This document shows, piece after piece, positions 215 to 35,750 of a DNA stretch of 64,000 nt. Position 1 is the stretch's first letter. Each line of letters opens with the position of its first letter. Both the position numbers and the translations under genes were made by a program. Origin of the DNA: an uncultured Pseudomonadota bacterium (GTDB lineage Bacteria; Pseudomonadota; Alphaproteobacteria; Rs-D84); assembly GCA_949290785.1 (NCBI GenBank), contig CASETE010000004.1:12794-76793 (forward strand), written 5' to 3'. Under the pieces are notes generated by a model. It was given only the letters and a program-made list of their open reading frames with translations. It did not search any database and had not been told where the DNA came from.

Positions 215-321
215 GGATTTACCCCCTTTTGTTTAATTTTACAGTATTCATTATATCACAAAATTCCCCATAAAAGTCTAGGAATAAAAATGTTTTTTAT
301 CCCCGCTTTCGCGGGGATTCA

Positions 322-2814
322 TTACATAACGATATCTTCACATACAGGCTCCGACACTTCTGTCGTACATTCTGTATTCCGGCTGTTATGGAACCAACTG
401 CTACTACCTGTTGTCTTACAATTTTCTTTTGATATCGTTGTACATATATGGCAAGTTCTTGTATCACGACTAAATATCGCAGTTACTTCTTTAGTCATTC
501 CACCACCACTTAAACTTGAGCCTCCCAAATATCCGCTATTAGAAAACTTTACACCACCCGATTTTACGACTCCTGTTCCGCCTTTTGATAAATCTTCAAT
601 TGACAAACCGGCCCCAACATCATAACTGATAGAATAAGGTGGAGTTAGTGGCGTTGTCGCATCAGTACTTATACCTAAATCACTGCCACCATTTTCTGCA
701 ATCTTTTGACACATATACTGCGCCAAATCCACAGAAGCGTTTTTGGTTGCATCGGCAATCGCCGTATTTAACTTTGCGTTATAATTATCCTGAGCCTGAC
801 GCAATGCAGCAACCGCAATTTGCATTTTTACTTGATTCAATAGATTTGGAAAACGTCCCGTTGTTTTTGCACCGGATTTACCTGTTATTTGCGATAAATC
901 ACGACCGTTTACACAGAATTGAATTTCGGGGTCTTCTTCTATCATCGCAATTGTGCGATTGATTGTTCCTGCGATATTATTCAACTCTTCTTCTATGGAC
1001 GATATGATACCATCTGCATTTGCGACACCGGCGTTTTTCTCGCGGATTTTAGCAATGTATTCTTGGACGCCGATTTCACCCGGTCCCAATGTTACATTTC
1101 CTTCGGCGCCCGCATCAACTGTTTTACCGGAAGAATCGCCCATTTTTATGCTGCCGAAAGAAATCATACCAGTTACACGATATATATTGCCATCCTTTTG
1201 AGAACGTAATGAACCGGTTCCCAATGTATCATCGGCAGCAAACTTGTTACAATCAGTTGTGCTGCCACAAACCTCGGTCATCTTTTGATCAACTAAATTC
1301 TGACACTGTTCAATTGCAGCGTTATCAATATTCAAATACAACCCCATTAACATGCCATCCAAATCATCCATAGAGAAATTTGGATTATTTGCCTTGCAGA
1401 CGACCAAAGAATCTAATGGGCAAATGTCATGGATATAGTCATAGTCCATACCAATGCAATTTTCAAAGTTAGGACCGCAACGTGTATCCGCCGTAAAACA
1501 GTCTTTCACTTCTTGGGTACAGGCATCTACACGCATTGCTGCCAACTTATCTTCAACATATCCCCAAATAAGCGGTTCCATTCTTTCACAAGGGTCTATT
1601 TCAACCTTGCAAAAACTGCGCGCCATATCAGGACGCGATAAACAAGCGTCCATTGTTGCAATGCCCTTGCCTGCGATATCGTCTTTACACGCCTGTTGAA
1701 TACAATTAGAAATGTTGGTCAAACAAGACTGACGGAACTTTGATTCTGCCTGACTTTCGGCAAGCCTAATTGTTGGTGCAGCTTCGCGCAGGAAATTTGG
1801 CCAAACCATATCACGAACTGCAACGCAGTTATCTAACACATTTTCACAGATTACTCGTTTTGAATTTAAAACGTCCATAGTAGAGGCAGTTATGTCATAA
1901 GTTTCAACGCTTTGAACTTTTGTTCCGGCGGTACTTACGGTTTCATTATTTTGCATATTTTCTGACGCGACAATAGAAACACAATTCTCCCAATTTTCAC
2001 CGCATGCATCCGTTGTCAACATACACTTTTTAAACTCTACCATACATTGACCCAGGTCATATTTATTTGCTTCTTCAAAACTTTCTTGCAACGCCTGTCT
2101 GACTGCGGATTCCGCGCTTGCCAATTCGGCTTCGGCTTCGGCTTTCTTTTTAGTCAGCGTATTTTTGAACCCCAAACAATCCGAGGTTATTTGTCTGGAA
2201 TACAACTGTTCTAAGAAAGGTAAATCACCAGAACAAGATTCCGGTAACTGAGCGTTACATAAATCTTTGGCAGCTTTGTATAATGCGTTACCTGTTTTAT
2301 TTGCCAAACTGGTTATGTCGCTTTCTTCCGTTTCTTCATACGAGTTATCTTCAAACAAGGCTAATAAACTTGCACGTTCTTGTGATTTTTTTTCTTCCGC
2401 CGTTATTTCCGTATCGGAAATTATATTTCCATCTGCGTCATATTTGCGCTGACCCGTAAAAACAATATCTGCATTTGCGCCGGCTTTTACACGTTCAACT
2501 TCCACCGTCTTAATACGATTCGCCTCGTTTAACATATCTTGGATATCTGCGAAATCTTTTTCGTACTGAATGCTGTCGTCACTGCAAGTACAACTGCCAC
2601 CATTAGAATTATCTGTTATACAAAACTGATCCATACAACCAAAATAAGCATTATAACAGTCTTGATCATACAAACCGGTTGTTTCTGTACGAGTACGGAC
2701 GGTTGTTCCTTGTTGAATTGCAGATTGTTTCTTGGCAGTCGTTGCCGCATAAACTGCGCCAATAAACATACACATTACACATGATACAGGAACAATCGTT
2801 TTTCTTAGTTTCAT
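322..2814 (-). CDS. Large secreted cysteine-rich protein, family member 1 (about 830 aa), function unknown
   Basis: Long ORF 322..2850. The internal ATG at 2814 (MKLRKTIVPVSCVMCMFIGAVYA, signal peptide) is preceded by a GGGGGA RBS. It has dozens of Cys and the motifs DCYNAYFGCMDQFCITDNSNGGSCTCSD and NKYDLGQCMVEFKKCMLTTDACGENWENC, both shared with paralogs in this window. Confidence 0.85.
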   Translation of the reverse strand: MKLRKTIVPVSCVMCMFIGAVYAATTAKKQSAIQQGTTVRTRTETTGLYDQDCYNAYFGCMDQFCITDNSNGGSCTCSDDSIQYEKDFADIQDMLNEANRIKTVEVERVKAGANADIVFTGQRKYDADGNIISDTEITAEEKKSQERASLLALFEDNSYEETEESDITSLANKTGNALYKAAKDLCNAQLPESCSGDLPFLEQLYSRQITSDCLGFKNTLTKKKAEAEAELASAESAVRQALQESFEEANKYDLGQCMVEFKKCMLTTDACGENWENCVSIVASENMQNNETVSTAGTKVQSVETYDITASTMDVLNSKRVICENVLDNCVAVRDMVWPNFLREAAPTIRLAESQAESKFRQSCLTNISNCIQQACKDDIAGKGIATMDACLSRPDMARSFCKVEIDPCERMEPLIWGYVEDKLAAMRVDACTQEVKDCFTADTRCGPNFENCIGMDYDYIHDICPLDSLVVCKANNPNFSMDDLDGMLMGLYLNIDNAAIEQCQNLVDQKMTEVCGSTTDCNKFAADDTLGTGSLRSQKDGNIYRVTGMISFGSIKMGDSSGKTVDAGAEGNVTLGPGEIGVQEYIAKIREKNAGVANADGIISSIEEELNNIAGTINRTIAMIEEDPEIQFCVNGRDLSQITGKSGAKTTGRFPNLLNQVKMQIAVAALRQAQDNYNAKLNTAIADATKNASVDLAQYMCQKIAENGGSDLGISTDATTPLTPPYSISYDVGAGLSIEDLSKGGTGVVKSGGVKFSNSGYLGGSSLSGGGMTKEVTAIFSRDTRTCHICTTISKENCKTTGSSSWFHNSRNTECTTEVSEPVCEDIVM

Positions 2815-2831
2815 TTTTCCCCCACATACTT

Positions 2832-2850
2832 TTGTACATATGTTGTACAA
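2832..2850. promoter_or_regulatory. Perfect 7-bp inverted repeat TTGTACA-N5-TGTACAA in the 60-bp gap between two Cys-rich genes (operator-like)
   Basis: The plus strand reads ttgtacatatgttgtacaa. It lies 18 nt upstream of the 2814 start codon on the minus strand. Confidence 0.3.
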
Positions 2851-2874
2851 ACAAACATGTAATTCGCTGACGAA

Positions 2875-5037
2875 TTACATGTTAACGTCTTCGCAAGATT
2901 CAATTTCTTGACAGAATTCTTCCTCGCCCGCGGCGCTGCGACCTGCAAAGAAACCGCCAACTGCACCAACCACGCCACCGATTGCAGTTCCCCAACCCGG
3001 CGTAACCATTGTACCAGCCGCCGCACCGGCAGAAAGCCCCCCTGCAAGCCCCTTTAATCCTGCTGTGCCCTTGCTTTCACCGCCAACCTCGCAAACCTGT
3101 TGAACGCGACATACATGACAGTTTCGCAAATCCGGTTCAAAAGAAACGCTTCTTATGTAACTGTAATTACCGCTTTTAGAACTCGGCGTTTCAACTTTAT
3201 ATGTATTAAAGCAATTTCTTTCCGCCTCTTCTAAATCCTGCTGACGTGATAATTCAGCAATTTTTGTTTCCAGTTCACGCATAGCGCGATTTTCTGCATT
3301 TATCTGCGCAATCATTTTTGCGCTATTAAATACAGTACTTCCCAAACTTTTACGGTCGGCTGGTTTTTGACTGTCTTGACAAGCAGCCACTGTTATATCT
3401 TGTTCAAACTGTTTAAAGAACTCGTTTACAGTATTTTCCGTATTTGCACGAACCGTTTCACGCAACTCCGCCAACGCTTGTTCTGTATCTGGAACGGCAA
3501 CCAAAGATACGATTTTTGTATCGGTCGGCAAGCAAGACATATCCGTACCGCAAACAGCACCCAATTGTTCACCAAAATAATTCAAGCACCCCTGCAACAT
3601 CTGATAATCCATCTGCAATAACGCCGCCTGCACAATTATATCAAACTGCGTTTCATTTTTACATGATGGGAACATAGTCTGCGGACATAATTGTGCTATT
3701 TCATTTGCGCTTTTACCGACACATTCTGGCGCTGTGAAGTTTTCACCACACCTGTCGCGTAAACATTGGTCAATATCATTTTGACAAAACTGAGTACGCA
3801 AATATCCCAACTTATCATTTACAACTGATTTTATACCTGGAATCATGGCTTCACATTCATCAATAACCGGGCACACACCAGCCGCAACATTAACATCCGT
3901 TAAGCAAGCCGAATTTGTATCCGTAGAACAACTATCTTCCAAGCAAACTTGTATTCTTGCCAAGCATGTTCCACGCGCATTTTTATCTGCATACTTTGCG
4001 GCATCTGCCAATATACTTTTTGATTCCGCTTCCCAATCTTGTAAAACGTATTCACGTACCGCCATACATTGATCCAAGACATTTTCGCATGCATTTGCAC
4101 GTCTCCCCAGCAAGTCGGCGTCTAAGCAATTTTCAAAATTAACACCGCATCCGCCTTTATCAGCAATACACGCACGATACGCCAACAAACATTCACCACG
4201 GTTATACTTATTAGTCGTATCTAACATTTCAAGACGCGCTTGACGAACTGCGGCTTCGGCCGTACGTTTATTAGATTCCGCTATAGATTTCTGGTCATTT
4301 AAATAAGATTCAAACGCCTTACAATCTTGCACAATTTGACGCGCATACAACATTTCTTCCATTTCAGCAGTACTACCACAAGCCTCTAACTTACTGGCAC
4401 AAAATTCTGCAGCCATAGAATACAAACCGTCACCTATCAAATCATCGGCACCAAGGCTTGCCTCTGTTTCCGTACCGTCATTAATCCAATCAGCAAAACT
4501 TATTCCTGACGCCTTTGAACTTTTTTGCGCCTGCGCACTTTCACCAAATACTAATTTTGCCTGCGCACCAAGTTGCTCGCGCTCTACCCCTTCGGTATAT
4601 AATAAATCAGCCTCTTTTTGCAAATCTTGAATTTCTTGAATCAACGACTTTGACTGACGAATATTATCCGAGCAAGCACATCTACTACCTTCTGACTCAT
4701 CAAGCAAACAAAATTCATCCATACAAGCACGATATGCATCCCTACAACTCGTACTTATTGCCACACCAGAATCGTCTGTATTGTCGTCTGTTGTATTATC
4801 AGTGGCACCACCATTAGAACTTCCACCGCCGCTTGTACCACCGGGTTTAGTAGACATTGTCGGATTAGTCGGCCCAGAATTACTAGAACTGTTTATATTT
4901 GTCGCCATATTAGGCATTCTGGCCCCCGCCTGCGACATACGCGTTACACCAACCCTTACACTGGAATCACTGCGATCTGCACCAAAAGCTAATCCTGGCA
5001 CAGTCATAAGAAACGCTAAAAACAAACCTAATTTCAT
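2875..5037 (-). CDS. Large secreted cysteine-rich protein, family member 2 (720 aa) with C-terminal glycine-zipper segment
   Basis: Signal peptide MKLGLFLAFLMTVPGLAFGA. Motifs SCRDAYRACMDEFCLLDESEGSRCACSD and NKYNRGECLLAYRACIADKGGCGVNFENC. The C-terminus reads GLAGGLSAGAAAGTMVTPGWGTAIGGVVGAVGGFFAG followed by ...CEDVNM. Confidence 0.85.
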   Translation of the reverse strand: MKLGLFLAFLMTVPGLAFGADRSDSSVRVGVTRMSQAGARMPNMATNINSSSNSGPTNPTMSTKPGGTSGGGSSNGGATDNTTDDNTDDSGVAISTSCRDAYRACMDEFCLLDESEGSRCACSDNIRQSKSLIQEIQDLQKEADLLYTEGVEREQLGAQAKLVFGESAQAQKSSKASGISFADWINDGTETEASLGADDLIGDGLYSMAAEFCASKLEACGSTAEMEEMLYARQIVQDCKAFESYLNDQKSIAESNKRTAEAAVRQARLEMLDTTNKYNRGECLLAYRACIADKGGCGVNFENCLDADLLGRRANACENVLDQCMAVREYVLQDWEAESKSILADAAKYADKNARGTCLARIQVCLEDSCSTDTNSACLTDVNVAAGVCPVIDECEAMIPGIKSVVNDKLGYLRTQFCQNDIDQCLRDRCGENFTAPECVGKSANEIAQLCPQTMFPSCKNETQFDIIVQAALLQMDYQMLQGCLNYFGEQLGAVCGTDMSCLPTDTKIVSLVAVPDTEQALAELRETVRANTENTVNEFFKQFEQDITVAACQDSQKPADRKSLGSTVFNSAKMIAQINAENRAMRELETKIAELSRQQDLEEAERNCFNTYKVETPSSKSGNYSYIRSVSFEPDLRNCHVCRVQQVCEVGGESKGTAGLKGLAGGLSAGAAAGTMVTPGWGTAIGGVVGAVGGFFAGRSAAGEEEFCQEIESCEDVNM

Positions 5038-5063
5038 TTTAATCCCACCCTACAATTGATATA

Positions 5064-5092
5064 ATTTTACCAAAATAAGTTCTCTGGCGCAA
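5064..5092 (-). promoter_or_regulatory. Candidate sigma70 promoter for 2875..5037 (TTGCGC-17-TAAAAT, TGG just upstream of -10)
   Basis: Read on the minus strand: GCTTGCGCCAGAGAACTTATTTTGGTAAAATTATATC. Confidence 0.35.
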
Positions 5093-5166
5093 GCAGATAA
5101 AAACAACTTGATTTTTTATGTTTAAAACAGTACCATTCAACGCATAAAATTTGAATAAGGTTACAT

Positions 5167-5418
5167 ATGGCAAAAGACGACGTAATTGTTTTTAGCGGTA
5201 CCGTAGAAGATAAACTGCCAAACACTATGTTTCGCGTAAAATTGGAAAACGGTCATGAAATTTTAGCAACTGTTTGCGGTAAAATGCGCAAGGCGCGCAT
5301 CTGGGTTAACGTTGGCGAAAAAGTTCGCGTTGAAATGACCCCTTATGATTTAGACAAAGGACGTATAACTTTCGTTGAGCGCACCCGTCAAACAGGCGAT
5401 CAAAACCAATCTATGTAA
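5167..5418 (+). CDS. infA: Translation initiation factor IF-1
   Basis: The 83-aa sequence [72 protein letters not shown] is the canonical IF-1 S1-fold sequence. Confidence 0.95.
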
Positions 5419-5443
5419 AGTTGCCGAAGTCGGCGACTTTTTT
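5419..5443 (+). terminator. Intrinsic terminator after infA
   Basis: aagttgccg-aagt-cggcgactt stem-loop followed by TTTTT. Confidence 0.6.
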
Positions 5444-5508
5444 ATTATAATCGGCGCAAATACTTCTTTCATTAAAAAGACATTTTTGATATCATTATTA
5501 AGATAATA

Positions 5509-7962
5509 ATGAAAAAGAATTTACTTTTTATACTTATATGCCTTTTATGCATTGACAACGTCAATGCTGCTGTTCGCAGTGAAACAACCGTCAATCGTAA
5601 CGTTGGTGATAACTCCACAACAAATACGATAGTGGCAAGAACGGCAACAACCCCAACGACAAGAACACAAGCCTCTCAAAGTACGACACGTACATCTACT
5701 CTATCAACCGCACGTAACACAGAAAACACAGTTAACCGCAGTGCAATAACCAGAACAAATTTGCAACAGAACGTGTCGCGCAGTGCCGCCAACCCACGCA
5801 GCGGCTCGAACGCACTATCAACCGCCCGAAGCGCTGCAAACACATCCATAGTACGCAGCGCTACGAACGCCAGAAAAACTATTACGAACACAACCCAGGG
5901 CGTATCCAAGGCATCCGTTGCGCGCGCGGCAACACAATCAACGAATACTTTTGGCACTGGATATAACATTTGTCGTGACGCTTACTTTACATGTATGGAC
6001 CAGTTTTGTGCAACAGCAAATACCACCTATCGCAGATGTGTATGTTCATCGCGTCTAACAGACATACAAGACAAAGAGCGTGCGTTATCCCAAGCAGCCA
6101 ACCAACTGCAAGACTTCAAGGATTTAAATATAGAAGTTATACCGAAAACTGCTGCGGAAGTAAACGCAATGATATCCGCAAGCGAAGGTGAAAGTTCACT
6201 ATCTATGACCAAAAATACAACATCGGAAACATTGGCAGGCATCAGCGAAATATTAAGTTCTAACAAATCTAAATCTTTATCAACGCTTGGGACCCTAGAC
6301 ATAGCGGGCGATATAAATCAAATTTGGGCGACGACAGATTTAGCATCTGGTCAAGCAATATCTAATTTGACCGGCGAATCTTTGTACAACGCCGTTCATG
6401 CGCAATGTTCGGAATTAGTAAAAGCAAACTGTGGCGACAACACGACGTTACAAATGGTTGTATCGGCATATGGAATGTACATAGAAAACGATTGTACAAC
6501 CTTATTAAATTCTCTGGATTCACAGTTACAAAAAGCAAACAGCACGATACGTGAAACCGAACGTGAAATGAATCTAGCAAGGCTGGAAAATTATAATGCG
6601 CACAACTCTACTGCTATAAACGATTGCATCGCACAGGTACGCAAAGACATAACCGCCGATACCGCATGCGGTACGGATTATGTCCACTGCTTGGATATCA
6701 CAGGCAGGTATCTTAACCGTGACACTGGCGAGCCAATTTATTCAAGGGATTTTTATCAATTGCAAAATCAAACTTCTTTGGACGGCGACGTATTGACGAA
6801 TCCGACGAATCGGATGCTGGTAGCAGAATTAAACCGCAAACGTGCGTTTGCAGAAAACGGTCTGTCAACGTGCAGGGACATTGCTGACGAGGTATGGGAC
6901 GAATTCATGCGCCAAGCAATTACAGAAATATACCAAGGGCAACAGGCAAAAATCAGAGACGTCAAAAACGATTGCCTTGATACCGTTAACTTATGCTACG
7001 ACGAACAAAGCGAATCCTTGAAAGACTTTAGTAATATCAAAGAAGAATTATTATTAGGTTCCAGATTGGAATTATCAGAAGAATTGTGCCAAGAAAAATT
7101 ATACGCATGCAGTAATTTATATGGCGACCCCAACGGTGACGGCCTTAATTTGCTTATATCTGCGATGCACGACATAACAGACCAAAAGATTGCAAAAGAA
7201 TGTCGGACATTATTGGAAGAATATGCCCAAGATTTATGTACCGTCCCCAGCAACGACAGCTTACATTCTTATCCTTATGCCTGTCGCGTTTATGCACCTG
7301 GCGACCAAATTTACGCATCAAATTGGTATTGCAATCAATTACAATGGTCTACAAATACAGGTGGCACGACAGACGATTCAATTGGTCCCGCGCCCGCCAA
7401 TGGTTATAACTGTCCAACATTCAAACGGTACAAATCGTGTAATTTTGGATATTACCTTGCCACACTACAAACAGACGGGAATTGGATATACACATCAACG
7501 CCAATGTTTAATAACGCATGTATCAGATGTCCGTCTAACGCGCAATGCGCCGGTGGAACGACGGGCCCCGTATACGGCGATGAAAGCGGTGACGGTTCAG
7601 GTGCACCAGACTGCGGGACAGACTATGCGGGCAGTTTATATCAAAAGGTTGTAAAATACGCAACCCAGGTATGCATACGTCCATCTGAACTAGAAAACAT
7701 AATATCAGGGAAAACACAACTGCCCACAAATATATTAGAAGACGTAAATGTGGTAATGGATTCAATTCGTGTATCCATGTCACAGTCTTTATCGGCAGAA
7801 TGTGACAGGCTTGGTGGCACATGGGTAAACACACCATGGGTAGAGGGCTCAACCGGCGGTACAACGTTATTTAAAGCGTTCTATGATGAAACAGGCGCAA
7901 ATACTAAGTGGGGATATTGTGCGGACCCCAGCAGCATTTCAACATTAAATTCTGGTAACTAG
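5509..7962 (+). CDS. Large secreted cysteine-rich protein, family member 3 (817 aa)
   Basis: Signal peptide MKKNLLFILICLLCIDNVNA, then about 130 aa of R/S/A/T/N low complexity (RSAANPRS, RSAANTSIVRSATNARK), then ICRDAYFTCMDQFCATANTTYRRCVCSS and many further Cys. Confidence 0.85.
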   Translation: MKKNLLFILICLLCIDNVNAAVRSETTVNRNVGDNSTTNTIVARTATTPTTRTQASQSTTRTSTLSTARNTENTVNRSAITRTNLQQNVSRSAANPRSGSNALSTARSAANTSIVRSATNARKTITNTTQGVSKASVARAATQSTNTFGTGYNICRDAYFTCMDQFCATANTTYRRCVCSSRLTDIQDKERALSQAANQLQDFKDLNIEVIPKTAAEVNAMISASEGESSLSMTKNTTSETLAGISEILSSNKSKSLSTLGTLDIAGDINQIWATTDLASGQAISNLTGESLYNAVHAQCSELVKANCGDNTTLQMVVSAYGMYIENDCTTLLNSLDSQLQKANSTIRETEREMNLARLENYNAHNSTAINDCIAQVRKDITADTACGTDYVHCLDITGRYLNRDTGEPIYSRDFYQLQNQTSLDGDVLTNPTNRMLVAELNRKRAFAENGLSTCRDIADEVWDEFMRQAITEIYQGQQAKIRDVKNDCLDTVNLCYDEQSESLKDFSNIKEELLLGSRLELSEELCQEKLYACSNLYGDPNGDGLNLLISAMHDITDQKIAKECRTLLEEYAQDLCTVPSNDSLHSYPYACRVYAPGDQIYASNWYCNQLQWSTNTGGTTDDSIGPAPANGYNCPTFKRYKSCNFGYYLATLQTDGNWIYTSTPMFNNACIRCPSNAQCAGGTTGPVYGDESGDGSGAPDCGTDYAGSLYQKVVKYATQVCIRPSELENIISGKTQLPTNILEDVNVVMDSIRVSMSQSLSAECDRLGGTWVNTPWVEGSTGGTTLFKAFYDETGANTKWGYCADPSSISTLNSGN

Positions 7963-8044
7963 AAAAATTTTTATAAACCGTGATGAAAGGAATCTTGCGA
8001 TAAAAAAAACTTTTTGATACAATACAAATTATAAAGAGTAAAGA

Positions 8045-8749
8045 ATGAGGAAAATTTTTACAGTTTCTTTTATAAGTTTACTTATTGCAAGCCCCGCCGT
8101 TTCCGCAACGCCGTGGTGGCAACAACCGACCGTATGTCGTCTTGACCCGACAAATTGTTATACCAGTATGGGCATCGGGTACGATAGTGAATTGTGGGAT
8201 ACTAACGGCGGTTGTTGGGGTATGAAATTAATCTGTCCCGAAGCATTGATAAGCACATCGGAAAGTCAACCCATACCTATGGGCAAATCAGACATCGCAA
8301 AAAGTAAAAATATAAAACAAGATTTTGATACGAATAAACTAAACGGCGATTGTTTCGGCGTTCGCAAGACTATTTCTGACGGCGCAATGGCGTCCGTTAA
8401 CGGTCAATACGTAAAGGTTTGGTGTAACGGCGTTTTGAATAACCCAGATGAATTCTTACCAAACGGTGAAATAACATTCGGTGAACAACCCAGTTGTTCT
8501 GAATTGGCGGACTATGGTTATGTCGCCGTTGTAGATAATAATTGCTATGGGAAATATTATGACCCTTCAGAATACCGTATTGAATGTGACAGCGATGATG
8601 TATTACCGTCTCGTTTGGTGATATTAAACGGCGCGGATTATTCTACTACATCGGGAAAATTCCCTGCCGACGTATCTGCTGCGAACAAAATATTTGACGC
8701 AATGGAAAACGTATCTGAAAATCAACGTTCAAAATACTATAAAAACTAG
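8045..8749 (+). CDS. Secreted Cys-containing hypothetical protein (234 aa)
   Basis: Signal peptide MRKIFTVSFISLLIASPAVSA. Same strand as, and 82 bp after, the preceding Cys-rich gene. No recognisable domain. Confidence 0.7.
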   Translation: MRKIFTVSFISLLIASPAVSATPWWQQPTVCRLDPTNCYTSMGIGYDSELWDTNGGCWGMKLICPEALISTSESQPIPMGKSDIAKSKNIKQDFDTNKLNGDCFGVRKTISDGAMASVNGQYVKVWCNGVLNNPDEFLPNGEITFGEQPSCSELADYGYVAVVDNNCYGKYYDPSEYRIECDSDDVLPSRLVILNGADYSTTSGKFPADVSAANKIFDAMENVSENQRSKYYKN

Positions 8750-8785
8750 ATAAAAAAACTTATATTTATTTTCATAAAAAATAAT

Positions 8786-8816
8786 AAAAATCCCCCAATT
8801 AAATGGGGGATTTTTT
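8786..8816. terminator. Bidirectional intrinsic terminator between convergent genes
   Basis: aaaaa-tccccc-aattaaat-ggggga-tttttt. Confidence 0.75.
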
Positions 8817-8829
8817 ACACGTTTCGGAT

Positions 8830-11975: not shown

Positions 11976-11986
11976 TTTAGTTATTT

Positions 11987-15620: not shown

Positions 15621-15626
15621 AAAAAA

Positions 15627-27282: not shown

Positions 27283-28149
27283 ATGGTAAAAAAAATCGTA
27301 TTTTTAATATCCAGCATATGCTTATGCCCTGGTTTATCGCTTGCCGCGACTTGTTCGCAAGCAAATTTAACGCGTTGCCTTGATTCTGTATGTGCGATAA
27401 ACATATCATCTAATCCTGCGGCTCGTTGCCAATATTGTGGTACGTCCAGTGCCGGCAGTCCAGACACAAAGAACGCTATGCGCAGTTTATCGCTTGGGCA
27501 ATCTGCGAAATATACGCTTAGTGAAAAAGAATTGAAAAATGCCCCCACCGACCCGGGTAAACGTTATATATGGGCAACAGAACAATGTATAAAAAAGATA
27601 GAAGGTTGTACAACCGAAGACGTATCCGACACATATGATAAATTAATAGAACAATCTTGCAAAGCAGCCGGCATAAACGCCCAAATGGCTTCATTACGTG
27701 CCGACGCGAACAAGACGGTCAGCAAAACAACCTGCTCTACGGATATAACGGCGTGCATGGTTGACAGCAAACGTTGCGGGCCCGACTATCGTTCTTGTGA
27801 AAGCGATTCGGAATTTAATAATTTCTTTGCTTATTGTTCTGTAGAGGCCAAGGGTTGCGACGAATACATATCAGATATTCGTTCCGATTTAATGTCTCTT
27901 CGGGACAACACCATCAAAAACGCGGACCTGGCCATAGACAACATTGTGTCTGCATATCAAAATGCACGTACTAAAAAAGTATCAGACGCAAAAAGTGCCT
28001 GTGCCAACAATACCGGACGTGACAGCTGCATTAAGATAGTATGCGAACGCAACATGCCAAACAAATGTGGCGAAGGTTATGAATCAGAAAAAAGCGCAGC
28101 AACACAATTCTGTAAATTTTATGAATTGGCTTGTGATACATTAAAATAA
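27283..28149 (+). CDS. Secreted cysteine-rich protein (288 aa), short family member, first gene of a 3-gene operon
   Basis: Signal peptide MVKKIVFLISSICLCPGLSLA, then CSQANLTRCLDSVCAINISSNPAARCQYCG and many further Cys pairs. Confidence 0.8.
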   Translation: MVKKIVFLISSICLCPGLSLAATCSQANLTRCLDSVCAINISSNPAARCQYCGTSSAGSPDTKNAMRSLSLGQSAKYTLSEKELKNAPTDPGKRYIWATEQCIKKIEGCTTEDVSDTYDKLIEQSCKAAGINAQMASLRADANKTVSKTTCSTDITACMVDSKRCGPDYRSCESDSEFNNFFAYCSVEAKGCDEYISDIRSDLMSLRDNTIKNADLAIDNIVSAYQNARTKKVSDAKSACANNTGRDSCIKIVCERNMPNKCGEGYESEKSAATQFCKFYELACDTLK

Positions 28150-28156: not shown

Positions 28157-29734
28157 ATGACGACGATACGAAGAAAAATTTTTAACGACAAAAAAACAAT
28201 CGCTTGGTATAAGTCAGGCGGCGTAGTATGTATGGCGGTTATATGCTTATACAGCATGTATGCTAGCGGTGCCTCGGTTGTTCAGCGCGAAGTTGCGGCC
28301 AGACCAACCGTGGCATCCAACCGCCCAAGCACTTCTGCACGCATGCCCACGATGGCGACACAGATATCAGACACAGGAACAGGAACCGAAACAGTAACGA
28401 ACACAAACGATGAAGCAAATTCAGAAACCGTTGATACATCTGACGCGACAGAAGAAGAAATAGTTATAGAAAACAAATCGTCGCAATTTTCTGACGTTCT
28501 TGGCAACGCCAGCGTATCCAGCCAATCTGATACAAGCGACACCGAATTAGCGGAAATGATTCGTCGTCAACGGGCGGCCTTGGACGCAGAATCCGCGGTT
28601 AGCACGGTAACGCAATCAACGCAGGCGTCACTATCTACTGGTCAAAACGCATGCGACGTTGCATTACGTAAATGTATGCAGGGCAAATGCGGTAACGACT
28701 TTTCAAAGTGCAGTGGCGACACGGACACCGCATGGGGCAACAAAATGGATTCTTGCCGTCTTGACACAGAATGCACGGGTACAGAGTACAGCAAATTTGC
28801 ACCGGAAATAAAAGCGGACCGTGACACAAACGCCCAACTGGCACTATATAACTCTATACTTGATTGTGGTAACAGATACAACGATTGCATTGTCACCCAA
28901 TGTGGCACGACATTCAGCAAGTGCCTTGGTAAATCGGCTGGCGACGCTGCAATATCTGCATGTTCAACGATTGCGACTGAATGCAAATCCCAAGACAGTG
29001 GTTTGGCAAGTCGTGCAATGAGTTTATTTGCGACATTACGCGTAGACGCCGAAGAACAAGTAAAACGCGACGAAGAACGTTTATATGCATTGCGCGACAA
29101 GATGGCAGAACAATGCAACATGTTGGGCGCAATGTTTGACGAACGCACGTTTGATTGCGTTTACACGGTTGAATTTTATGCGGGCGACAACAATACTCTG
29201 TTTGCATCAAAGAAGGCATATGCAGGTTCTTCGTTTGACTGCACGCCGAATTGGTTTGGCATAGACATAACGATGTTTAAAGAAAACGCCTATCGTACTA
29301 CGCGCGCGCAGCAATCTGCGACATCTGCCTTGTTAGGTTCTGGTCTTGGTGTTGCGGCGGGTGCAGTAACGTCTGGTGCGATAGATCGTGCGATTGACAG
29401 ACAAAAGGCTGAAAACGCCCTTGACAAAGCAAAAGAAGAATACGAAGAAAATTATGGTGACGGGTCTAAGTCCACAACCACACAGACAACGGTAACGACG
29501 ACTGGCAATCCACAGACAAACCCAACAAAATCAGACACAACAACAAAGGACGAAGACAGAATAACGGCACAAATAGGAAAAACCAAGGTAACAATAAAAA
29601 CGAACACAGAAGCGTTCAATCAAGTAACCGGTACCCAAAATTTCACTGAGAGAGCGGTGAACAATCTTAATAACAACAATTCAAATGGTTTTGCCAGCAA
29701 ATTATCACAAAATCTTGATAAAAACACAAAATGA
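28157..29734 (+). CDS. Secreted/anchored cysteine-rich protein (525 aa) with ARMPTMAT motif and glycine-zipper segment
   Basis: It starts 7 nt after the previous stop. Features are an N-terminal hydrophobic segment, SARMPTMATQI, ACDVALRKCMQGKCGNDFSKC, ALLGSGLGVAAGAVTSGAI, and a T-rich tail. Confidence 0.8.
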   Translation: MTTIRRKIFNDKKTIAWYKSGGVVCMAVICLYSMYASGASVVQREVAARPTVASNRPSTSARMPTMATQISDTGTGTETVTNTNDEANSETVDTSDATEEEIVIENKSSQFSDVLGNASVSSQSDTSDTELAEMIRRQRAALDAESAVSTVTQSTQASLSTGQNACDVALRKCMQGKCGNDFSKCSGDTDTAWGNKMDSCRLDTECTGTEYSKFAPEIKADRDTNAQLALYNSILDCGNRYNDCIVTQCGTTFSKCLGKSAGDAAISACSTIATECKSQDSGLASRAMSLFATLRVDAEEQVKRDEERLYALRDKMAEQCNMLGAMFDERTFDCVYTVEFYAGDNNTLFASKKAYAGSSFDCTPNWFGIDITMFKENAYRTTRAQQSATSALLGSGLGVAAGAVTSGAIDRAIDRQKAENALDKAKEEYEENYGDGSKSTTTQTTVTTTGNPQTNPTKSDTTTKDEDRITAQIGKTKVTIKTNTEAFNQVTGTQNFTERAVNNLNNNNSNGFASKLSQNLDKNTK

Positions 29735-31875
29735 AAAAGATATTAAATATAATTTTTGCGCTATGTATATCGTTCCCCGCCTTCGCGGATTCTCTAAATG
29801 ATGCCGATCAAATGATTACCATTTCCGGGACAGTAACAGATGAACAACAGAAACCTGCTGAATATGTAAACATAGTCGCTCTTAATGCACAAAAAACAGC
29901 AATTCAACAAGGGGTCAGTACTTTGGGTACCAGTACAGATGCTAGCGGACATTTTACATTAGCACTTACACCAGATGCAAAATATTTACAAATTTCTTAT
30001 ATTGGGTATACAACGCAAACGATACCAATTGATGTTAGCAACACAACAAACTATAATATACGACTTAGTCCCAACGAAACAACACTAAATACTGGCATTA
30101 CCATAAATGCAACAAATGATTGTACAGAGGAAGAACTACAAAAACAAGATCCAAAGGCAAAAACTGGAAAATTAAAAACTGAAAATAATATAATTTATTG
30201 TTATATAGATACATGTATTGATAATTTTATTCCAAATGACGACCATACTAAATGTGTCGCAAGTACCCGCAAATGCACAACAGATGAACTGCAAAACATT
30301 CCTCATGCAACTGAAGGCGAAGTAACTGGTGATGGTGCCTGTCATGCAACAAAGTGTGAATATGGATATAATCCCCAAGATGGTGTGTGTGTCGGCACAT
30401 CCGGAGATTGTAATCCAATGCCACAAAACGCCACAAAAGCACATTCAGAATATAATGCAACAACTGACAGCCACACTTGCATTGTTGATGAATGCGAAGA
30501 AGGCTTTACAAGAACGCCTGACAAACTGGCATGCGCAAAAAAAACTCTATCCAAAGAAGACGCAGAAAAGCAAATTGCTGAACTGCAGCAAAACGCCGAC
30601 GCCATGAAAGAAAAAGAACAATCCACAGCAAACAAATTATTAGGGGCCGCGTCTATAGGTGCAATGGGCATCGGCGGAATGCAGGCTTTATCCGCACTAT
30701 CGGAACAAAGCGCAGACGCCGCCGCAGAACAAGATATGACCGCATACTTGGCAACTTTCCGTTGCGATTACGGTCAAGGACAAGATATTCATGGTGGCGA
30801 TACCGACATAATACTGCCCGGCGGTAACGAATTAATATCTTTGTATACTGAATACATTCAACTTGCCTCGGACTTGAAAACAAGAAAAGAATCATTGGGC
30901 ATGTCACCCGGCATAGAATCAGAAATGCTGTTGGATAAAGCAGACACAGGTTTATATGACGACGTAGGAACTGGTATAACCACAGGTACGTTTGCGTCTT
31001 TGGCGCGTGCATTATCTGACCCGAACAGTGCCGATGCTGCTTTATGGGCGCAACAACAGGCAGACACAGCCAGCAAGTTAAAAACCGGTTTAATTACCGC
31101 AGGTGCCGGCGCGGTCATAGGCGTTGCGGGAAATATTGCGATAAATAAAAACGCACCAAAAGAAAACTCGGAACAAATACTTGCCAGTTACGAGTCATTA
31201 AAGAAACTGGAATATGAAATCAGCCAACTGCCAGACCAAACGGCAGGCGCAACCTGCCCAGCAGGCACAACGGGGACTGTTCCAAATTGCAAACCCACAA
31301 ACACGAGAATTGAGTATAATTCAAACACCAATCAAACAGAAGTAGCATCGAACAACGATGACACACCATCACAAAATAATGAAGCAAACCCAACTGAACT
31401 AGAAAAGATAACCACTCTTACAAGCGTAGATAGTATCATATCAGCCATTGCAAATACTGACGCAGAAAATAAAAACGATGAAAATATCGTTTCTTTATCA
31501 GCACGCAATTTGTTTAAGTTAAACGAATATACGTTAGTACCGACATCAAAAACAATAATTGCAACATTCGCAACTCGAATATTAAGCACCAATAAGGACA
31601 ACCCAACATATTGTCTGATTGTTACTGGCAATACTGATAAAACAGGAAACGACCGTATAAATCAGCCATTATCAGAAAAACGTGCAAAAGCCGTTACATC
31701 CCAACTTAGCTTATTCGGAATTCCAGAAGCCAACATACTATCCAAGGGGGCAGGCTCGCAAAACTGTACAGATGCTTTTCGTAAGGAAAAAAATTGCAAC
31801 GGCAATAATTGCGAAGCGTGCAGAAATGTAACAATAGAATACAGACCTTCACCATGTACGCCTTGGACGTTTTAA
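29731..31875 (+). CDS. Multidomain envelope protein: carboxypeptidase-regulatory-like N-domain, three Cys-repeat modules, glycine-zipper segments, C-terminal OmpA-like peptidoglycan-binding domain
   Basis: ATGA start/stop overlap with the upstream gene. ISGTVTDEQQKPAEYVNIVAL...GHFTLAL...ISYIGYTTQTIPI is CarboxypepD_reg-like. The C-terminus F..NEYTL...LIVTGNTDKTGNDRINQPLSEKRAKAVTSQL is the OmpA/MotB C-terminal signature. Confidence 0.8.
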   Translation: MKKILNIIFALCISFPAFADSLNDADQMITISGTVTDEQQKPAEYVNIVALNAQKTAIQQGVSTLGTSTDASGHFTLALTPDAKYLQISYIGYTTQTIPIDVSNTTNYNIRLSPNETTLNTGITINATNDCTEEELQKQDPKAKTGKLKTENNIIYCYIDTCIDNFIPNDDHTKCVASTRKCTTDELQNIPHATEGEVTGDGACHATKCEYGYNPQDGVCVGTSGDCNPMPQNATKAHSEYNATTDSHTCIVDECEEGFTRTPDKLACAKKTLSKEDAEKQIAELQQNADAMKEKEQSTANKLLGAASIGAMGIGGMQALSALSEQSADAAAEQDMTAYLATFRCDYGQGQDIHGGDTDIILPGGNELISLYTEYIQLASDLKTRKESLGMSPGIESEMLLDKADTGLYDDVGTGITTGTFASLARALSDPNSADAALWAQQQADTASKLKTGLITAGAGAVIGVAGNIAINKNAPKENSEQILASYESLKKLEYEISQLPDQTAGATCPAGTTGTVPNCKPTNTRIEYNSNTNQTEVASNNDDTPSQNNEANPTELEKITTLTSVDSIISAIANTDAENKNDENIVSLSARNLFKLNEYTLVPTSKTIIATFATRILSTNKDNPTYCLIVTGNTDKTGNDRINQPLSEKRAKAVTSQLSLFGIPEANILSKGAGSQNCTDAFRKEKNCNGNNCEACRNVTIEYRPSPCTPWTF

Positions 31876-34712: not shown

Positions 34713-35750
34713 ATGAGCAAGATTTTTAACCTTATCGCCACGCATAAAAATGCTATCATATGGTCAGCATGCTATGGCGCTGTGATATGGGGAATATTGC
34801 TTTGGCTGTTTAATTTCGACATATTTTCATCAAACGCTTGGGCACAGTTGCCCCAGGCTAACCTAAATAACTTTCCGGGCTTTGTGTTTGTTATATTATT
34901 ACTCGCAGCAATACCTTTGTACATTGCAACAACGACGCTAATAATCAGAACCAAGAAGCCTTTATTTACAATACCGATACCAAAATTTCTGTATCCGGTA
35001 CCAGAAAAAGAAGAAAGTACCGAATCGAAAAAAGAAACCAAAGACAACCCCGAAACAAATCAACCAATCGCAGAGACATTACCTGCGGGCATTCCTGCCG
35101 AGTTACGTACGCCGTTTTTACGCGCCCGCGAACACATTCGCGCCGGCATAACACCCCAAGCGATTAATAAGTACAACGAAATCGCATCTGCAGCGAATAC
35201 GGCTGACTTATCCTCACCCGCGCAGACAACAAGCAACGACAAGCAACCCGACAACAGCACAATTACCGACACAGACAACCCGCTGCCCATTCCTGAGAAT
35301 TTTGACTTTGACGCCCCCGACATAGACGATTCGGAATACGCCGAAGAATCCATGCCGCATTTTTCGCCTGTATTTACAGACATAGACTTTGATGAAAAAG
35401 ACGGGGACAGGGACGATGACACGACGACAGAGTCCCAAGAAACAGTGATAAAATTCTTGCAATCGCGTAAAGAGAGTTTTGAGCAAAAACAAGACATAAT
35501 AATCAGCGACAATTTTGTCATAGGCATTCATTCAGACCCTGATTTTTGGATAGCAGACGAAGAATTATGGTTTGCGTCTGGCAAGCAGAAAGAATCCCCT
35601 ATAAAGAAGATACAAGAAATAGCATCATCCAAGCAAATACAAGGTGTATTATATCTTGCTGAAACGAACATAATGGACCTAGATACCAAGATATCAGAAT
35701 GGTCAGAATCAGGAATAAAAGTGATAACGTCTATATCTGAATTGGAATAA
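34713..35750 (+). CDS. Membrane protein with acidic disordered linker (hypothetical, 345 aa)
   Basis: It has two or three N-terminal hydrophobic helices, a D/E/T-rich middle region and a C-terminal globular part. No recognisable domain. Confidence 0.6.
   Translation: MSKIFNLIATHKNAIIWSACYGAVIWGILLWLFNFDIFSSNAWAQLPQANLNNFPGFVFVILLLAAIPLYIATTTLIIRTKKPLFTIPIPKFLYPVPEKEESTESKKETKDNPETNQPIAETLPAGIPAELRTPFLRAREHIRAGITPQAINKYNEIASAANTADLSSPAQTTSNDKQPDNSTITDTDNPLPIPENFDFDAPDIDDSEYAEESMPHFSPVFTDIDFDEKDGDRDDDTTTESQETVIKFLQSRKESFEQKQDIIISDNFVIGIHSDPDFWIADEELWFASGKQKESPIKKIQEIASSKQIQGVLYLAETNIMDLDTKISEWSESGIKVITSISELE

Follow-up and report, generated by a model that had tools for sequence, protein, structure and literature searches.

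An undescribed family of exported, cysteine-rich helical proteins in Candidatus Enterousia, a genome-reduced gut alphaproteobacterium

What are the large, cysteine-rich exported proteins that a bacterium with a genome of about 1 Mb continues to carry? The question is raised by a 64-kb stretch of DNA (the window) from Candidatus Enterousia, an uncultured gut alphaproteobacterium, in which four paralogs of 720-1014 aa and several Cys-rich partners take up about 14 kb in this window alone. Candidatus Enterousia/Rs-D84 is widespread in human and livestock guts, lacks respiration and has never been cultured (PMC12306168). In Rs-D84 genomes (0.75-1.0 Mb) standard transporters are absent and many of the encoded proteins are hypothetical and membrane-bound; a partner-dependent lifestyle has been proposed (PMC12306168). 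As a tiny genome keeps these 14 kb under strong purifying selection, the proteins, here ORF1-ORF4 and their partners, are leading candidates for a function in the envelope or in contact with a partner.

Two cysteine motifs mark the four paralogs. The strict form of the first, C...Y..CMD.FC, was located four times in the window by regular expression in six-frame translation, at 2620-2658(-) in ORF1, 4708-4746(-) in ORF2, 5971-6009(+) in ORF3 and 38437-38475(-) in ORF4. The second, C-x6-C-x2-6-CG-x-[NDT]-[FYW]-x2-C, occurs eight times by the same approach, twice each in ORF1, ORF4 and the smaller gene at 28157 and once each in ORF2 and the gene at 27283; CGTDYVHC is all that remains of it in ORF3. 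Neither motif was found in 100 mononucleotide shuffles of the window. The six first-module and three second-module strings quoted in an earlier note on this DNA are present in the translations of the ORFs concerned, and the four large ORFs are, as claimed there, true paralogs with both modules in common, the motifs aligning in a multiple alignment. This alignment spans about 500 residues at 20-38% pairwise identity, with more than 20 cysteines common to all four. In a larger set of 114 family members about 33 are conserved, and among the best 150 representatives module 1 is present in 136 and the CG..[FYW]..C core in 145.

ORF1 (322..2814 (-)) encodes 830 aa with 36 cysteines after the signal peptide. 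Its start had been assumed at 2814 (MKLRKT), which is most likely right, as a 100% identical 830-aa protein is on record. A signal peptide is followed by a short Thr/Gln-rich linker, module 1, a charged helix and an acidic loop, and then by two repeat units, a helical region, a Gly-rich linker and a C-terminal Cys-containing beta unit. The AlphaFold model (m64b5ef1c0e0f) is all-alpha, with a mean pLDDT of 80.7 and values above 90 in the core. Module 1 (C53-x6-C60-M-D-x-F-C65-x9-C75-x-C77-S; 2581..2658 (-), by regex) has columns that are 99-100% conserved across the 114 members, and the charged stretch noted earlier behind it appears in the model as a long charged helix (residues 80-120), followed by a low-confidence acidic loop (residues 121-175, pI 4.2). 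Module 2a reads NKYDLGQC257-x6-C264-x6-C271G-x-N-W-x2-C278 (1981..2067 (-), by regex), and module 2b, with a conserved MRVD just before it, C432-x6-C439-x6-C446G-x-N-F-x2-C453 (1456..1521 (-)). The C-terminal unit (residues 773-830; 325..498 (-)) forms four polar beta strands by DSSP of the model, is conserved at Y/F781, C788, C799, Cys column 818, W820 and I828 in the 114 members, and closes on a hydrophobic-x-hydrophobic end (..EDIVM).

Immediately upstream, and probably co-transcribed with ORF1, lies ORF2 (2875..5037 (-); 720 aa, 36 Cys), with module 2 at 4126-4191. A glycine-zipper-like hydrophobic hairpin (GLKGLAGGLSAGAAAGTMVTPGWGTAIGGVVGAVGGFFA; 2944..3060 (-)) is inserted within its C-terminal unit and is, from its sequence, a candidate membrane anchor. 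Residues 652-700 gave sub-threshold Pfam matches to Gly-zipper_YMGG (11 bits vs a threshold of 28.9) and Bacteriocin_IIc, and the AAAGTMVTPGWGT motif of the hairpin is retained in the ortholog L83_757, which is 51% identical. ORF3 (5509..7962 (+); 817 aa, 29 Cys after the signal peptide) is the most divergent paralog, lacking five core cysteines and having a different, Cys-rich C-terminal region; its degenerate module 2 lies at 6667-6690. ORF4 (35797..38841 (-); 1014 aa, 34 Cys; local hmmsearch E 7e-260) has module 2a at 37810-37875 and module 2b at 37249-37314. Its Ala/Ser/Thr/Arg linker is long and basic and contains ARSAT repeats, and its C-terminal tail is of low complexity.

The common layout is a signal peptide, a disordered linker that is either Ser/Thr/Ala/Arg-rich or acidic, and an all-alpha core of about 500 residues, composed of module 1 and two copies of a 100-130 aa helical unit ending in module 2. 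Beyond the core there is a further helical region, after which most members end in a small, polar beta unit that contains cysteine and has a hydrophobic-x-hydrophobic C-terminus. Our working definition of the family asks for a signal peptide, module 1 (C-x6-CMD-x-FC-x9-C-x-C), at least one unit ending C-x6-C-x2-6-CG-x-[ND]-[FYW]-x2-C, and an all-alpha core with about 30 conserved cysteines. ORF1, ORF2 and ORF4 conform to it, as does ORF3 with a degenerate module 2; 27283 and 28157 qualify by the repeat unit only.

Module 2 had been taken for a single module per protein. It is instead the end of the unit of 100-130 aa, which occurs twice within the core: in ORF1, modules 2a and 2b match in hhalign with a probability of 96.7% (E 3e-10), and block 170-330 matches block 331-480 with a probability of 93%. 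Modules 1 and 2 share C-x6-C[ML] and may be copies of one unit, although their profile comparison is non-significant (E 0.004, probability 8%). Two small genes are remote relatives. The first (27283..28149 (+); 288 aa, 20 mature Cys) has one repeat unit, with module 2 at 27733-27798, and matches the family profile in two registers (hhalign E 1.7e-5 and 4.6e-5); its 724 homologs are all without a name, and its ortholog in the relative L081 is 37% identical. The second (28157..29734 (+); 525 aa, 15 mature Cys) has module-2 copies at 28652-28711 and 28865-28924 and a Gly-zipper-like segment further downstream. By hhalign (probability 94%, E 1.4e-7) its core, at residues 143-304, shares homology with residues 233-438 of ORF1, and its L081 ortholog, 41% identical, likewise has 15 cysteines. 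Plain hmmsearch of the window with the family HMM finds the four large ORFs only, and the small relatives need profile-profile comparison. Both had been credited with a degenerate module 1. The module-1 profile is not significant in either (E 0.12 for 27283, 0.24 for 28157), and the string so interpreted in 28157, ACDVALRKCMQGKCGNDFSKC, aligns to module 2. The ORF at 32487-34577 was rejected as a family member, with no hhalign similarity. It has in common with the family only an N-terminal RMPxM motif and C-x6-C spacings.

The earlier interpretation as a whole is thus partly supported: paralogy, the two modules and the lack of a described domain stand, the degenerate module 1 is not established, and the layout of module 2 and the expansion discussed below need correction. 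For neither module was a described domain found. Pfam-A and NCBIfam gave no match for either module in the window proteins; Pfam on 48 diverse long members, in which informative fusions were sought, gave one sub-threshold DUF7631 match only; a sequence profile search of the PDB gave none; and a Foldseek search of PDB and BFVD with the ORF1 model gave none at E<=1e-3 (best in PDB, E 0.85). The Sel1 repeat profile (PF08238) had no match at E<=1 in six window proteins, nor at E<=1e-3 in the 48 members, and the Chlam_OMP3 and Chlam_OMP6 profiles had no Pfam match in the window proteins or the 48 members. Twin-CX9C/CHCH hairpins, in which antiparallel helices bear two CX9C (or CX3C) motifs, were rejected, with C-x6-C dominating (25% of consecutive pairs) and C-x9-C at 4%, as were Duffy-binding-like and other described Cys-rich helical adhesin domains (no Pfam match, no Foldseek match in PDB). 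There was no YadA_anchor match, despite the four C-terminal strands and hydrophobic last residue; a type Vc (trimeric autotransporter) anchor, which has four amphipathic strands and an aromatic last residue, was rejected, as the strands are polar (Thr, Lys, Glu, Cys), without an alternating hydrophobic face.

An exhaustive search of 1.84 billion representatives returned 869 relatives, and all of the named ones are annotated as "hypothetical protein" in MAGs of Enterousia, gut Alphaproteobacteria or 'Rickettsiales'. These proteins are not described in the literature mentioning Enterousia or Rs-D84. ORF1-ORF4 constitute an undescribed protein family, which appears confined to one lineage of uncultured gut alphaproteobacteria with reduced genomes, that around Candidatus Enterousia (order Rs-D84).

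Several members in one window had suggested a strong lineage-specific expansion. The lineage-restricted look is borne out; a recent expansion is not. Relatives with 51-54% GC (vs 40% here) contain a 1:1 ortholog for every one of the four paralogs, at 42-51% identity and with gene order conserved (for ORF3, L83_1143 at 51%; for ORF4, L81_899 at 42%). The ORF2->ORF1 tandem is found in about 78 of 80 species loci and also in the relatives L083 and L084, in both of which the ORF1<-ORF2 / infA->ORF3->8045 arrangement is conserved. The duplications are therefore old. In every genome examined the paralogs are single-copy core genes beside housekeeping genes (infA, MscS, a ribosomal protein cluster). 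ORF1/ORF2 orthologs are about 70% identical between species vs 61% for the adjacent MscS-like channel, with dN/dS of 0.06-0.07 at dS 0.36-0.40, no 60-codon window above 0.16, and residues 330-540 as the most conserved stretch. Positive selection, for which a check among the paralogs had been suggested, and hypervariability are excluded for ORF1 and ORF2 by dN/dS and conservation; the two are under purifying selection instead. A mobile or foreign origin was also rejected on the uniform GC of the window and the conserved synteny with housekeeping genes. All four paralogs are old orthogroups (1:1) that purifying selection constrains strongly.

The predicted signal peptides of ORF1-ORF4 are of the Sec/SPase-I type and contain neither a twin-arginine motif nor a lipobox; the N-termini (MKLRKTIVPV.., MKLGLFLAF.., MKKNLLFIL.., MKRFVVFFA..) lack an RR motif. 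Cysteine content is 3.2-7.5% in ten exported ORFs vs 0-1.2% in the window's housekeeping and Pmp genes. The number of cysteines after residue 30 is even in 96 of 114 members and exactly 36 in distant orthologs of the ORF1 and ORF2 types, and C364 and C409 are lost jointly in five sequences. C-x6-C makes up 25% of consecutive Cys spacings vs 3.3% after shuffling, and its cysteines are located in predicted helices. Odd counts are seen in some partners: nine in 106 of 111 8045-family proteins, 15 in both 28157 orthologs, and 21 and 19 in the OmpA-like orthologs, the argument from odd counts drawing on two genomes for the last two. It fails in the ORF3 class, with eight odd and six even counts.

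The gene neighbours, judged by sequence, suggest a cell-envelope role. Located 3' of ORF3, 8045 (8045..8749 (+)) encodes an exported beta-rich protein of 234 aa with exactly nine cysteines, all invariant, that is not a family member; none of its 205 homologs has a Pfam domain, and its confident, beta-rich model (pLDDT 80), searched for a lectin/adhesin fold, had no PDB fold match. The best PDB matches of this model, TNFR-like Cys-rich domains, are non-significant (E 0.79). The start of 29731 (29731..31875 (+)) overlaps the 28157 stop by 4 nt, and the gene encodes an OmpA-family peptidoglycan-binding protein (Pfam OmpA E 1.2e-12, CarboxypepD_reg E 1.8e-13, with NCBIfam matches), with a CarboxypepD_reg-like N-terminal domain and a Cys-rich middle region; the order 27283-28157-OmpA-like is kept in L081 (51% GC). 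Adjoining ORF4 is a multi-pass membrane protein without a Pfam match (34713..35750 (+)), whose ortholog (32% identical) adjoins the ORF4 ortholog in L081. Two Pmp-type autotransporters (8830-15283) and an ankyrin-repeat exported protein lie in the same window. An Rfam scan found nothing in the region, and promoter and terminator scans of 1-9000 gave counts equal to those of shuffles.

We tentatively propose, with somewhat less than even confidence, that ORF1-ORF4 are exported by Sec and, as helical components stapled by disulfides, belong to an envelope or surface assembly tethered to peptidoglycan. After export, the cysteines would pair into about 17-18 intramolecular disulfides, stapling adjacent helices into rigid, protease- and bile-resistant rods. 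Paralogs and partners would assemble into a hetero-oligomeric envelope or surface structure, in which glycine-zipper segments (ORF2, 28157, 29731) would provide the hold on the outer membrane and the OmpA domain that on peptidoglycan, and the odd-Cys partners (8045; 28157 with the OmpA-like protein) may contribute intermolecular disulfides. A tiny, probably partner-dependent cell would gain a mechanically reinforced coat, possibly its contact face. The envelope link draws on the conserved gene order with the OmpA-like gene, the 34713 membrane protein and 8045, on the Pfam OmpA domain, on the conserved Gly-zipper motif of ORF2 and on the odd Cys counts of the partners; as a sign of physical association, the gene neighbourhood is circumstantial. 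No route across the outer membrane was identified, and the C-terminal beta unit is too polar for a transmembrane anchor, so that a periplasmic location, rather than one at the surface, is possible. As a proxy for expression, codon adaptation to ribosomal genes is mid-range and uninformative, and does not bear out the very high levels that a coat protein would be expected to reach. The lumen of the gut is a reducing environment, which counts against disulfides, and disulfide formation usually takes a quinone-dependent DsbB or VKOR route. As respiratory chains are reportedly absent in Rs-D84, this route may be missing (PMC12306168).

A main role in binding rather than structure is a possible, if rather doubtful, reading that overlaps with the envelope assembly: stapled rods on disordered linkers would project from the surface, bind a partner cell, protist or host mucus, and mediate the attachment and metabolite scavenging needed by a 0.9 Mb genome without standard transporters. 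The proposed partner-dependent lifestyle of Rs-D84, with a part for hypothetical membrane proteins in cell interactions, is in its favour (PMC12306168), as is co-location with the Pmp-type autotransporters and the ankyrin-repeat protein. The proteins are also large, acidic and exported, with variable low-confidence loops (121-175, 294-302, 560-600, 711-769), and the ORF4-like subfamily makes up 94 of the best 150 representative clusters, in a ranking biased by score. However, strong and uniform purifying selection (dN/dS about 0.06), with conservation above that of the neighbouring channel, is unlike most host- or partner-facing adhesins, and any ligand of the best-conserved surface (residues 330-540) would itself have to be highly conserved. 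The 48 diverse members contain no recognisable lectin, Ig or adhesin domain, and that no export route across the outer membrane was identified counts against adhesins too.

The cysteines might instead not be disulfide-bonded, serving as metal-binding or redox-active thiols, for instance to store or buffer metal in the periplasm or as a thiol redox relay, in a strictly anaerobic cell unable to run quinone-dependent Dsb. The reported absence of respiratory chains and the reducing habitat speak for this (PMC12306168), and a metal-binding seam could be formed by cysteines that lie at heptad spacing along one face of a helix. We consider it distinctly unlikely: the cysteine number is strictly even (36, 36 and 34-38 in distant orthologs), which, like the joint loss of C364 and C409, fits pairwise bonding, the cysteines have no conserved His, Asp or Glu partners beside them and form no CxxC motifs, and AlphaFold packs the helices confidently without ligands. 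Cofactor-loaded proteins are usually exported via Tat, whereas the signal peptides here are Sec-type without a twin-arginine motif; a Tat-exported cofactor protein was rejected because the S/T-R-R-x-F-L-K motif is absent before the hydrophobic core. Secreted toxins, bacteriocins or effectors against competitors or host cells, with disulfides for stability outside the cell, would also be exported, Cys-rich and stable-looking, and ORF2 has a weak, sub-threshold Bacteriocin_IIc-like Gly-rich segment (E 0.13). This is very improbable for single-copy core genes held in conserved order next to housekeeping genes in every genome examined, with the GC of the rest of the window, strong purifying selection, and no immunity, transporter or mobile-element genes adjacent; no toxin domain was found by Pfam and NCBIfam on the window proteins or by Pfam on the 48 members.

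In its boldest form, which we regard as unlikely, the envelope proposal would make the paralogs, 8045, 27283, 28157, the OmpA-like 29731 and 34713 a new bacterial envelope organelle: a helical lattice or attachment apparatus, covalently linked by disulfides, tethered to peptidoglycan, specific to the genome-reduced Rs-D84 alphaproteobacteria, assembled by oxidative folding without a respiratory quinone pool in a strict anaerobe, and underlying episymbiotic life in the animal gut. 

For a bacterium, an all-alpha fold in which about 17 putative disulfides are set at heptad spacing is unusual. The family has no Pfam, NCBIfam or PDB relative, and raises the question of how an anaerobe without a quinone pool would oxidise so many cysteines. 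Structural work would have a well-defined target in it, and it can serve directly as a marker of the lineage. Exported families specific to one lineage are frequent in metagenomic 'dark matter', and the finding is accordingly solid rather than, as yet, transformative.

Several known systems resemble parts of this one. Glycine-zipper outer-membrane proteins (Gly-zipper_YMGG, Gly-zipper_Omp: SlyB, Pcp, the rickettsial 17-kDa antigen) have membrane-embedded zippers, and the likeness is limited to the C-terminal segment of ORF2, with its conserved Gly/Ala-rich hydrophobic hairpin (AAAGTMVTPGWGTAIGG...). Unlike them, ORF2 is far under the Pfam threshold and without a lipobox, and its segment is an insertion in a Cys-containing beta unit of a 720-aa protein. 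The Cys-rich helical adhesin domains of eukaryotic parasites (Duffy-binding-like) are large, extracellular and all-helical, with many conserved disulfides and paralog families. The family here likewise has large all-helical domains, many conserved cysteines and paralogs; it differs in consisting of bacterial, Sec-exported single-copy orthogroups under purifying selection, not variant multigene families.

In the cysteine-rich outer-membrane complex of chlamydiae, OmcA and OmcB occur with MOMP, plus Pmp autotransporters, and are thought to be disulfide cross-linked. Both systems belong to small-genome, host-associated Gram-negative bacteria with exported Cys-rich proteins and Pmp-type autotransporters encoded alongside, but OmcB is beta-rich, the family here is all-alpha, and there is no Pfam match to chlamydial Cys-rich OMPs. 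Rs-D84 retains RodA, MreB and MrdA (PMC12306168), so peptidoglycan is present and the proteins are not obviously a wall replacement. Cross-linking, thought to occur in chlamydiae, is for the present family a proposal from sequence and model.

Helicobacter cysteine-rich proteins (HcpA-H, with Sel1-like repeats and structures for HcpB and HcpC) consist of helix pairs stapled by disulfides. Like them, the proteins here are exported and all-alpha, with repeated helix units and regularly spaced Cys pairs, the disulfides being putative, and make up a family of several paralogs that is apparently limited to a single host-associated, small-genome lineage of proteobacteria. Unlike them, they have no Sel1 (PF08238) signal and no fold match in the PDB, which includes the Hcp structures, and they are 3-5 times larger, with about 33 cysteines, a repeat unit of 100-130 aa, and extra linker and beta modules. 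An Hcp Cys pair bridges both helices of one 36-aa repeat, whereas C-x6-C lies within single helices here, so that the putative bonds must reach other helices.

The four large cysteine-rich genes ORF1 (322-2814, minus strand), ORF2 (2875-5037, minus), ORF3 (5509-7962, plus) and ORF4 (35797-38841, minus) encode proteins of one family. Their translations contain exactly the strings quoted in the earlier note, and the grouping proposed there holds in a proper alignment, in which the motifs coincide, more than 20 cysteines are invariant and identity is 20-38% across the entire cores. A regular-expression scan of all six frames of the window, where GC content is 40% throughout, found the module 1 motif C...Y..CMD.FC four times, once in each of ORF1-ORF4, and the module 2 motif C-x6-C-x2-6-CG-x-[NDT][FYW]-x2-C eight times; both were absent from 100 shuffles of the window. 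The sharing of motifs is real and far above chance.

The AlphaFold model of ORF1 has a mean pLDDT of 80.7 and a pTM of 0.53, with nearly all of the core (residues 50-710) above 90. After a signal peptide and a disordered linker, the model places module 1 on helices 51-65 and 73-77, followed by a charged helix (80-120), an acidic low-confidence loop (121-175), a long all-helical region reaching residue 530, a small beta insertion (537-576), additional helices (583-707), a Gly-rich disordered stretch (711-769) and a four-strand beta unit (773-829). Module 2 ends a unit that is present twice (module 2a against 2b, probability 96.7%, E 3e-10), and ORF1 block 170-330 likewise matches block 331-480 (probability 93%, E 2.8e-7). 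Both modules start with C-x6-C[ML], and their relatedness to each other was not significant. Conserved positions of the C-terminal unit are Y/F781, C788, C799, a cysteine column at 818, W820 and I828, and the last residue is Met, Phe or Leu. The unit resembles a small, soluble, disulfide-bonded domain whose C-terminus has the pattern hydrophobic-x-hydrophobic, and it is polar, unlike a membrane anchor. The corresponding unit of ORF2 contains a conserved glycine-zipper-like hydrophobic hairpin.

The linkers vary among the paralogues. Those of ORF3 and ORF4 are strongly basic (pI 12) and contain [AS]R[SA]A[TA] repeats; those of ORF2 and the gene at 28157 are acidic. The motif R-M-P-[TN]-M-[AP]-T occurs 20-50 residues past the signal peptide in three exported cysteine-rich proteins, encoded at 2875-5037 (minus), 28157-29734 (plus) and 32487-34577 (minus), as GARMPNMATN, SARMPTMATQ and TQRMPTMPTL; ORF3 and ORF4 have several copies of [AS]R[SA]A[TA] in its place. 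Sorting, tethering or processing are possible roles for it.

In an alignment of ORF1 with 113 relatives, 33 cysteines each reach at least 81% conservation, and the complete set is present in 80 of the 114 sequences. Consecutive cysteines are most often separated by six residues (25% of spacings vs 3.3% after shuffling), which puts cysteine pairs two turns apart on the same helix face. Ten exported ORFs in the window contain 3.2-7.5% cysteine, compared with 0-1.2% in housekeeping and Pmp genes. With the signal peptide removed, the number of cysteines is even in 88 of 100 ORF1-, ORF2- and ORF4-type proteins; ORF1 and its 46%-identity orthologues have 36 each, as do ORF2 and its 51% orthologue, and C364 and C409 are lost jointly in five sequences. 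The signal peptides, judged by eye, are Sec-type and lack a twin-arginine motif. We infer that the cysteines pair into disulfides, and the individual pairings are likewise putative.

Smaller relatives of the family are encoded in the same window. Residues 143-304, the core of 28157-29734, are homologous to ORF1 233-438 (probability 94%, E 1.4e-7), and the string there that had been taken for a degenerate module 1 is therefore module 2. A second supposed degenerate copy, in 27283-28149, fared little better: the N-terminal CSQANLTRCLDSVC shows the module 1 cysteine pattern with an insignificant match (E 0.12). When 121 of its own homologues were used, this protein could be aligned to the family profile in either of two registers (E 1.7e-5 and 4.6e-5), which is how a lone repeat unit should behave against a duplicated one. 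Plain hmmsearch detected neither protein. The exported 696-residue protein of 32487-34577 (minus) has 24 cysteines, five C-x6-C spacings and two glycine-zipper-like segments; hhalign found no relation to the family, Pfam and NCBIfam gave no match, and an orthologue is absent from the related loci L081, L083 and L084.

The gene at 8045-8749 (plus), always downstream of an ORF3 orthologue, encodes an exported protein of 234 residues with exactly 9 invariant cysteines. It has 205 homologues, none annotated, and its beta-rich AlphaFold model (pLDDT 80) has no fold match in the PDB. The OmpA-like proteins of 29731-31875 (plus) and of L081 (16734-18539) carry in their middle region short C-x2-[GN]-[YF]-x4-6-C hairpins (KCEYGYNPQDGVC, DECEEGFTRTPDKLAC); similar motifs, EGF-like in pattern only, are present towards the C-terminus of ORF3 and in protein P0144. 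Odd cysteine numbers are conserved among the partners: 106 of 111 members of the 8045 family have 9, both 28157 orthologues have 15, and the OmpA-like pair have 21 and 19. Speculatively, such partners may contribute intermolecular disulfides.

Gene order is conserved between species. In L083 (54% GC), as in the window, the ORF2 orthologue (51%) precedes the ORF1 orthologue (46%) on one side of infA, and on the other infA is followed by the orthologues of ORF3 (51%) and 8045 (43%). L084, from another Enterousia species, has the identical order and then a Pmp gene. In L081 (51% GC) six orthologues lie inside 13 kb, namely those of 34713, ORF4 (42%), 27283 (37%), 28157 (41%), the OmpA-like 29731 (29%) and ORF1 (46%). 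In this distant relative, HTH, ORF6N and HigB-like toxin-antitoxin genes (12743-16718) interrupt the 27283/28157/OmpA cluster, which suggests mobile insertions in an otherwise conserved arrangement. About 78 of 80 species loci have the ORF2-ORF1 tandem.

In the window, infA (IF-1, 83 aa; 5167-5418, plus) lies between the divergent ORF2 and ORF3, a placement shared with L083 and L084, and is followed by a terminator-like hairpin (5417-5440). A 13-bp stem-loop (2854-2883, minus) overlaps the ORF2 stop codon within the 60-nt gap ahead of ORF1 and may serve in intercistronic processing or attenuation; the promoter and terminator scan overall showed no enrichment over shuffles. Tandem autotransporters with Chlamydia-type Pmp repeats (8830-11874 and 11987-15283, both minus; cysteine only 0.1-0.3%) directly adjoin the cysteine-rich genes, and a Pmp gene of L084 has the same position.

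The earlier note had seen in these paralogues a strong lineage-specific expansion and had suggested a check for positive selection. The duplications are instead old, with orthologues in conserved order in L081, L083 and L084, and selection on ORF1 and ORF2 is purifying (dN/dS 0.059 and 0.071 against the closest orthologue, at dS 0.36-0.40), with no 60-codon window of either gene above 0.16. In 30 loci the copies of both are about 70% identical to those of locus L003, vs 61% for the adjacent MscS-like channel. Segment 330-540 is the most conserved, and the acidic loop and Gly-rich stretch are the most variable. The paralogues are core genes of the lineage, neither recently expanded nor antigenically variable.

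Among the matches listed, the nearest relatives of ORF1 are gut-metagenome proteins with 74-100% identity, one of them named 'hypothetical protein [Candidatus Enterousia intestinigallinarum]'. In species-representative genomes, 355 stretches were confirmed. The best 80 are all gut MAG sequences, from humans, chickens, sheep, deer, yak, buffalo, rabbit and mouse, and apart from two that are obviously mis-binned their labels read Enterousia, Alphaproteobacteria or 'Rickettsiales'. Family genes are carried by contigs filed under 'Bacteroides fragilis', 'Muribaculaceae' and 'Lachnospiraceae bacterium' (L023, L055 and P0465), which are almost certainly Enterousia contigs binned into other genomes. 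Members of order Rs-D84, to which Enterousia belongs, are rods that have peptidoglycan and a genome of 0.75-1.0 Mb; they lack the TCA cycle, respiratory chain and standard transporters, and a partner-dependent way of life has been proposed for them (PMC12306168). The remaining gene content fits this assignment, and includes rpoA with a ribosomal-protein cluster, EF-Tu, EF-G, SurA, a bile-salt-hydrolase-type CBAH and two Pmp-type autotransporters. The choloylglycine (bile salt) hydrolase family gene (16791-17900, plus), which has a counterpart near the L084 cluster, fits a gut-adapted organism. Elsewhere, 22616-26314 (minus) encodes an exported protein of 1232 aa whose N-terminal ankyrin repeats are followed by a long, uncharacterised part, and the C-terminal region looks beta-rich from the sequence; an Rfam Alpha_RBS alpha-operon leader (43001-43085, minus), barely over the gathering score, lies upstream of ribosomal protein genes, and tRNAs lie at 15707-15777 (plus) and 63241-63314 (minus).

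An exhaustive HMMER search of 1.84 billion cluster representatives with the core profile (483 positions) returned 869 proteins at E<=1e-3 and 436 at E<=1e-30. The architecture is common to the best 150 of the 869, with module 1 in 136 and the CG..[FYW]..C core in 145; among the matches listed, the few that bear names are annotated as hypothetical proteins from MAGs of a 'Rickettsiales bacterium' or 'Proteobacteria bacterium'. The best 120-150 matches of each large search were examined, and the outer taxonomic boundary of the family may lie beyond these. The novelty claimed for both modules stands: Pfam-A and NCBIfam gave nothing above noise for any of the proteins, Pfam revealed no domain fusion among 48 diverse long members, a profile search of all PDB sequences gave no match, and Foldseek of the ORF1 model found none at E<=1e-3 (best PDB 0.85, best BFVD 0.028). 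Papers on Enterousia and Rs-D84 make no mention of these proteins. This is a clearly delimited, undescribed family, and no solved structure is related to its predicted fold. We are highly confident that it is a new, lineage-restricted, exported family of cysteine-stapled helical repeats. Its novelty is that of an unannotated protein family rather than of a mechanism.

The proteins have export signals and an internal duplication, and their conserved cysteines are even in number, heptad-spaced and located on helices predicted with confidence. Their genes are ancient paralogues under purifying selection. Their linkage is conserved with an OmpA-family peptidoglycan-binding protein, small one-unit relatives, the 9-cysteine beta protein and a membrane protein of no assigned role. 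Tentatively, we read the family as an envelope scaffold. Oxidation after Sec export would produce rigid helical rods with about 17-18 disulfides, which would join one another and their partners in an envelope or surface structure, anchored to the outer membrane by glycine-zipper segments and to peptidoglycan by the OmpA domain. A primarily adhesive or contact role would suit the Rs-D84 lifestyle but sits awkwardly beside uniform purifying selection, and we consider it rather unlikely. The disulfide model is weakest where the absent respiratory chain is concerned, and this prompts the alternative of thiol or metal chemistry in place of disulfides, which we judge improbable. That the proteins are secreted toxins or effectors seems very improbable indeed.

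The putative disulfide density of the family is unusual for a bacterium, and the family could prove central to how a widespread, uncultured gut lineage lives. The defining features of trimeric autotransporters, CHCH, DBL and Tat-cofactor proteins were looked for and are absent. Helicobacter cysteine-rich Sel1-repeat proteins are exported and made of disulfide-stapled helix pairs, and the chlamydial cysteine-rich outer-membrane complex coexists with Pmp autotransporters. The family lacks the profile matches and the fold that define either group. In how it would work, its closest analogue is the Helicobacter proteins, and in cell biology it is the chlamydial complex.
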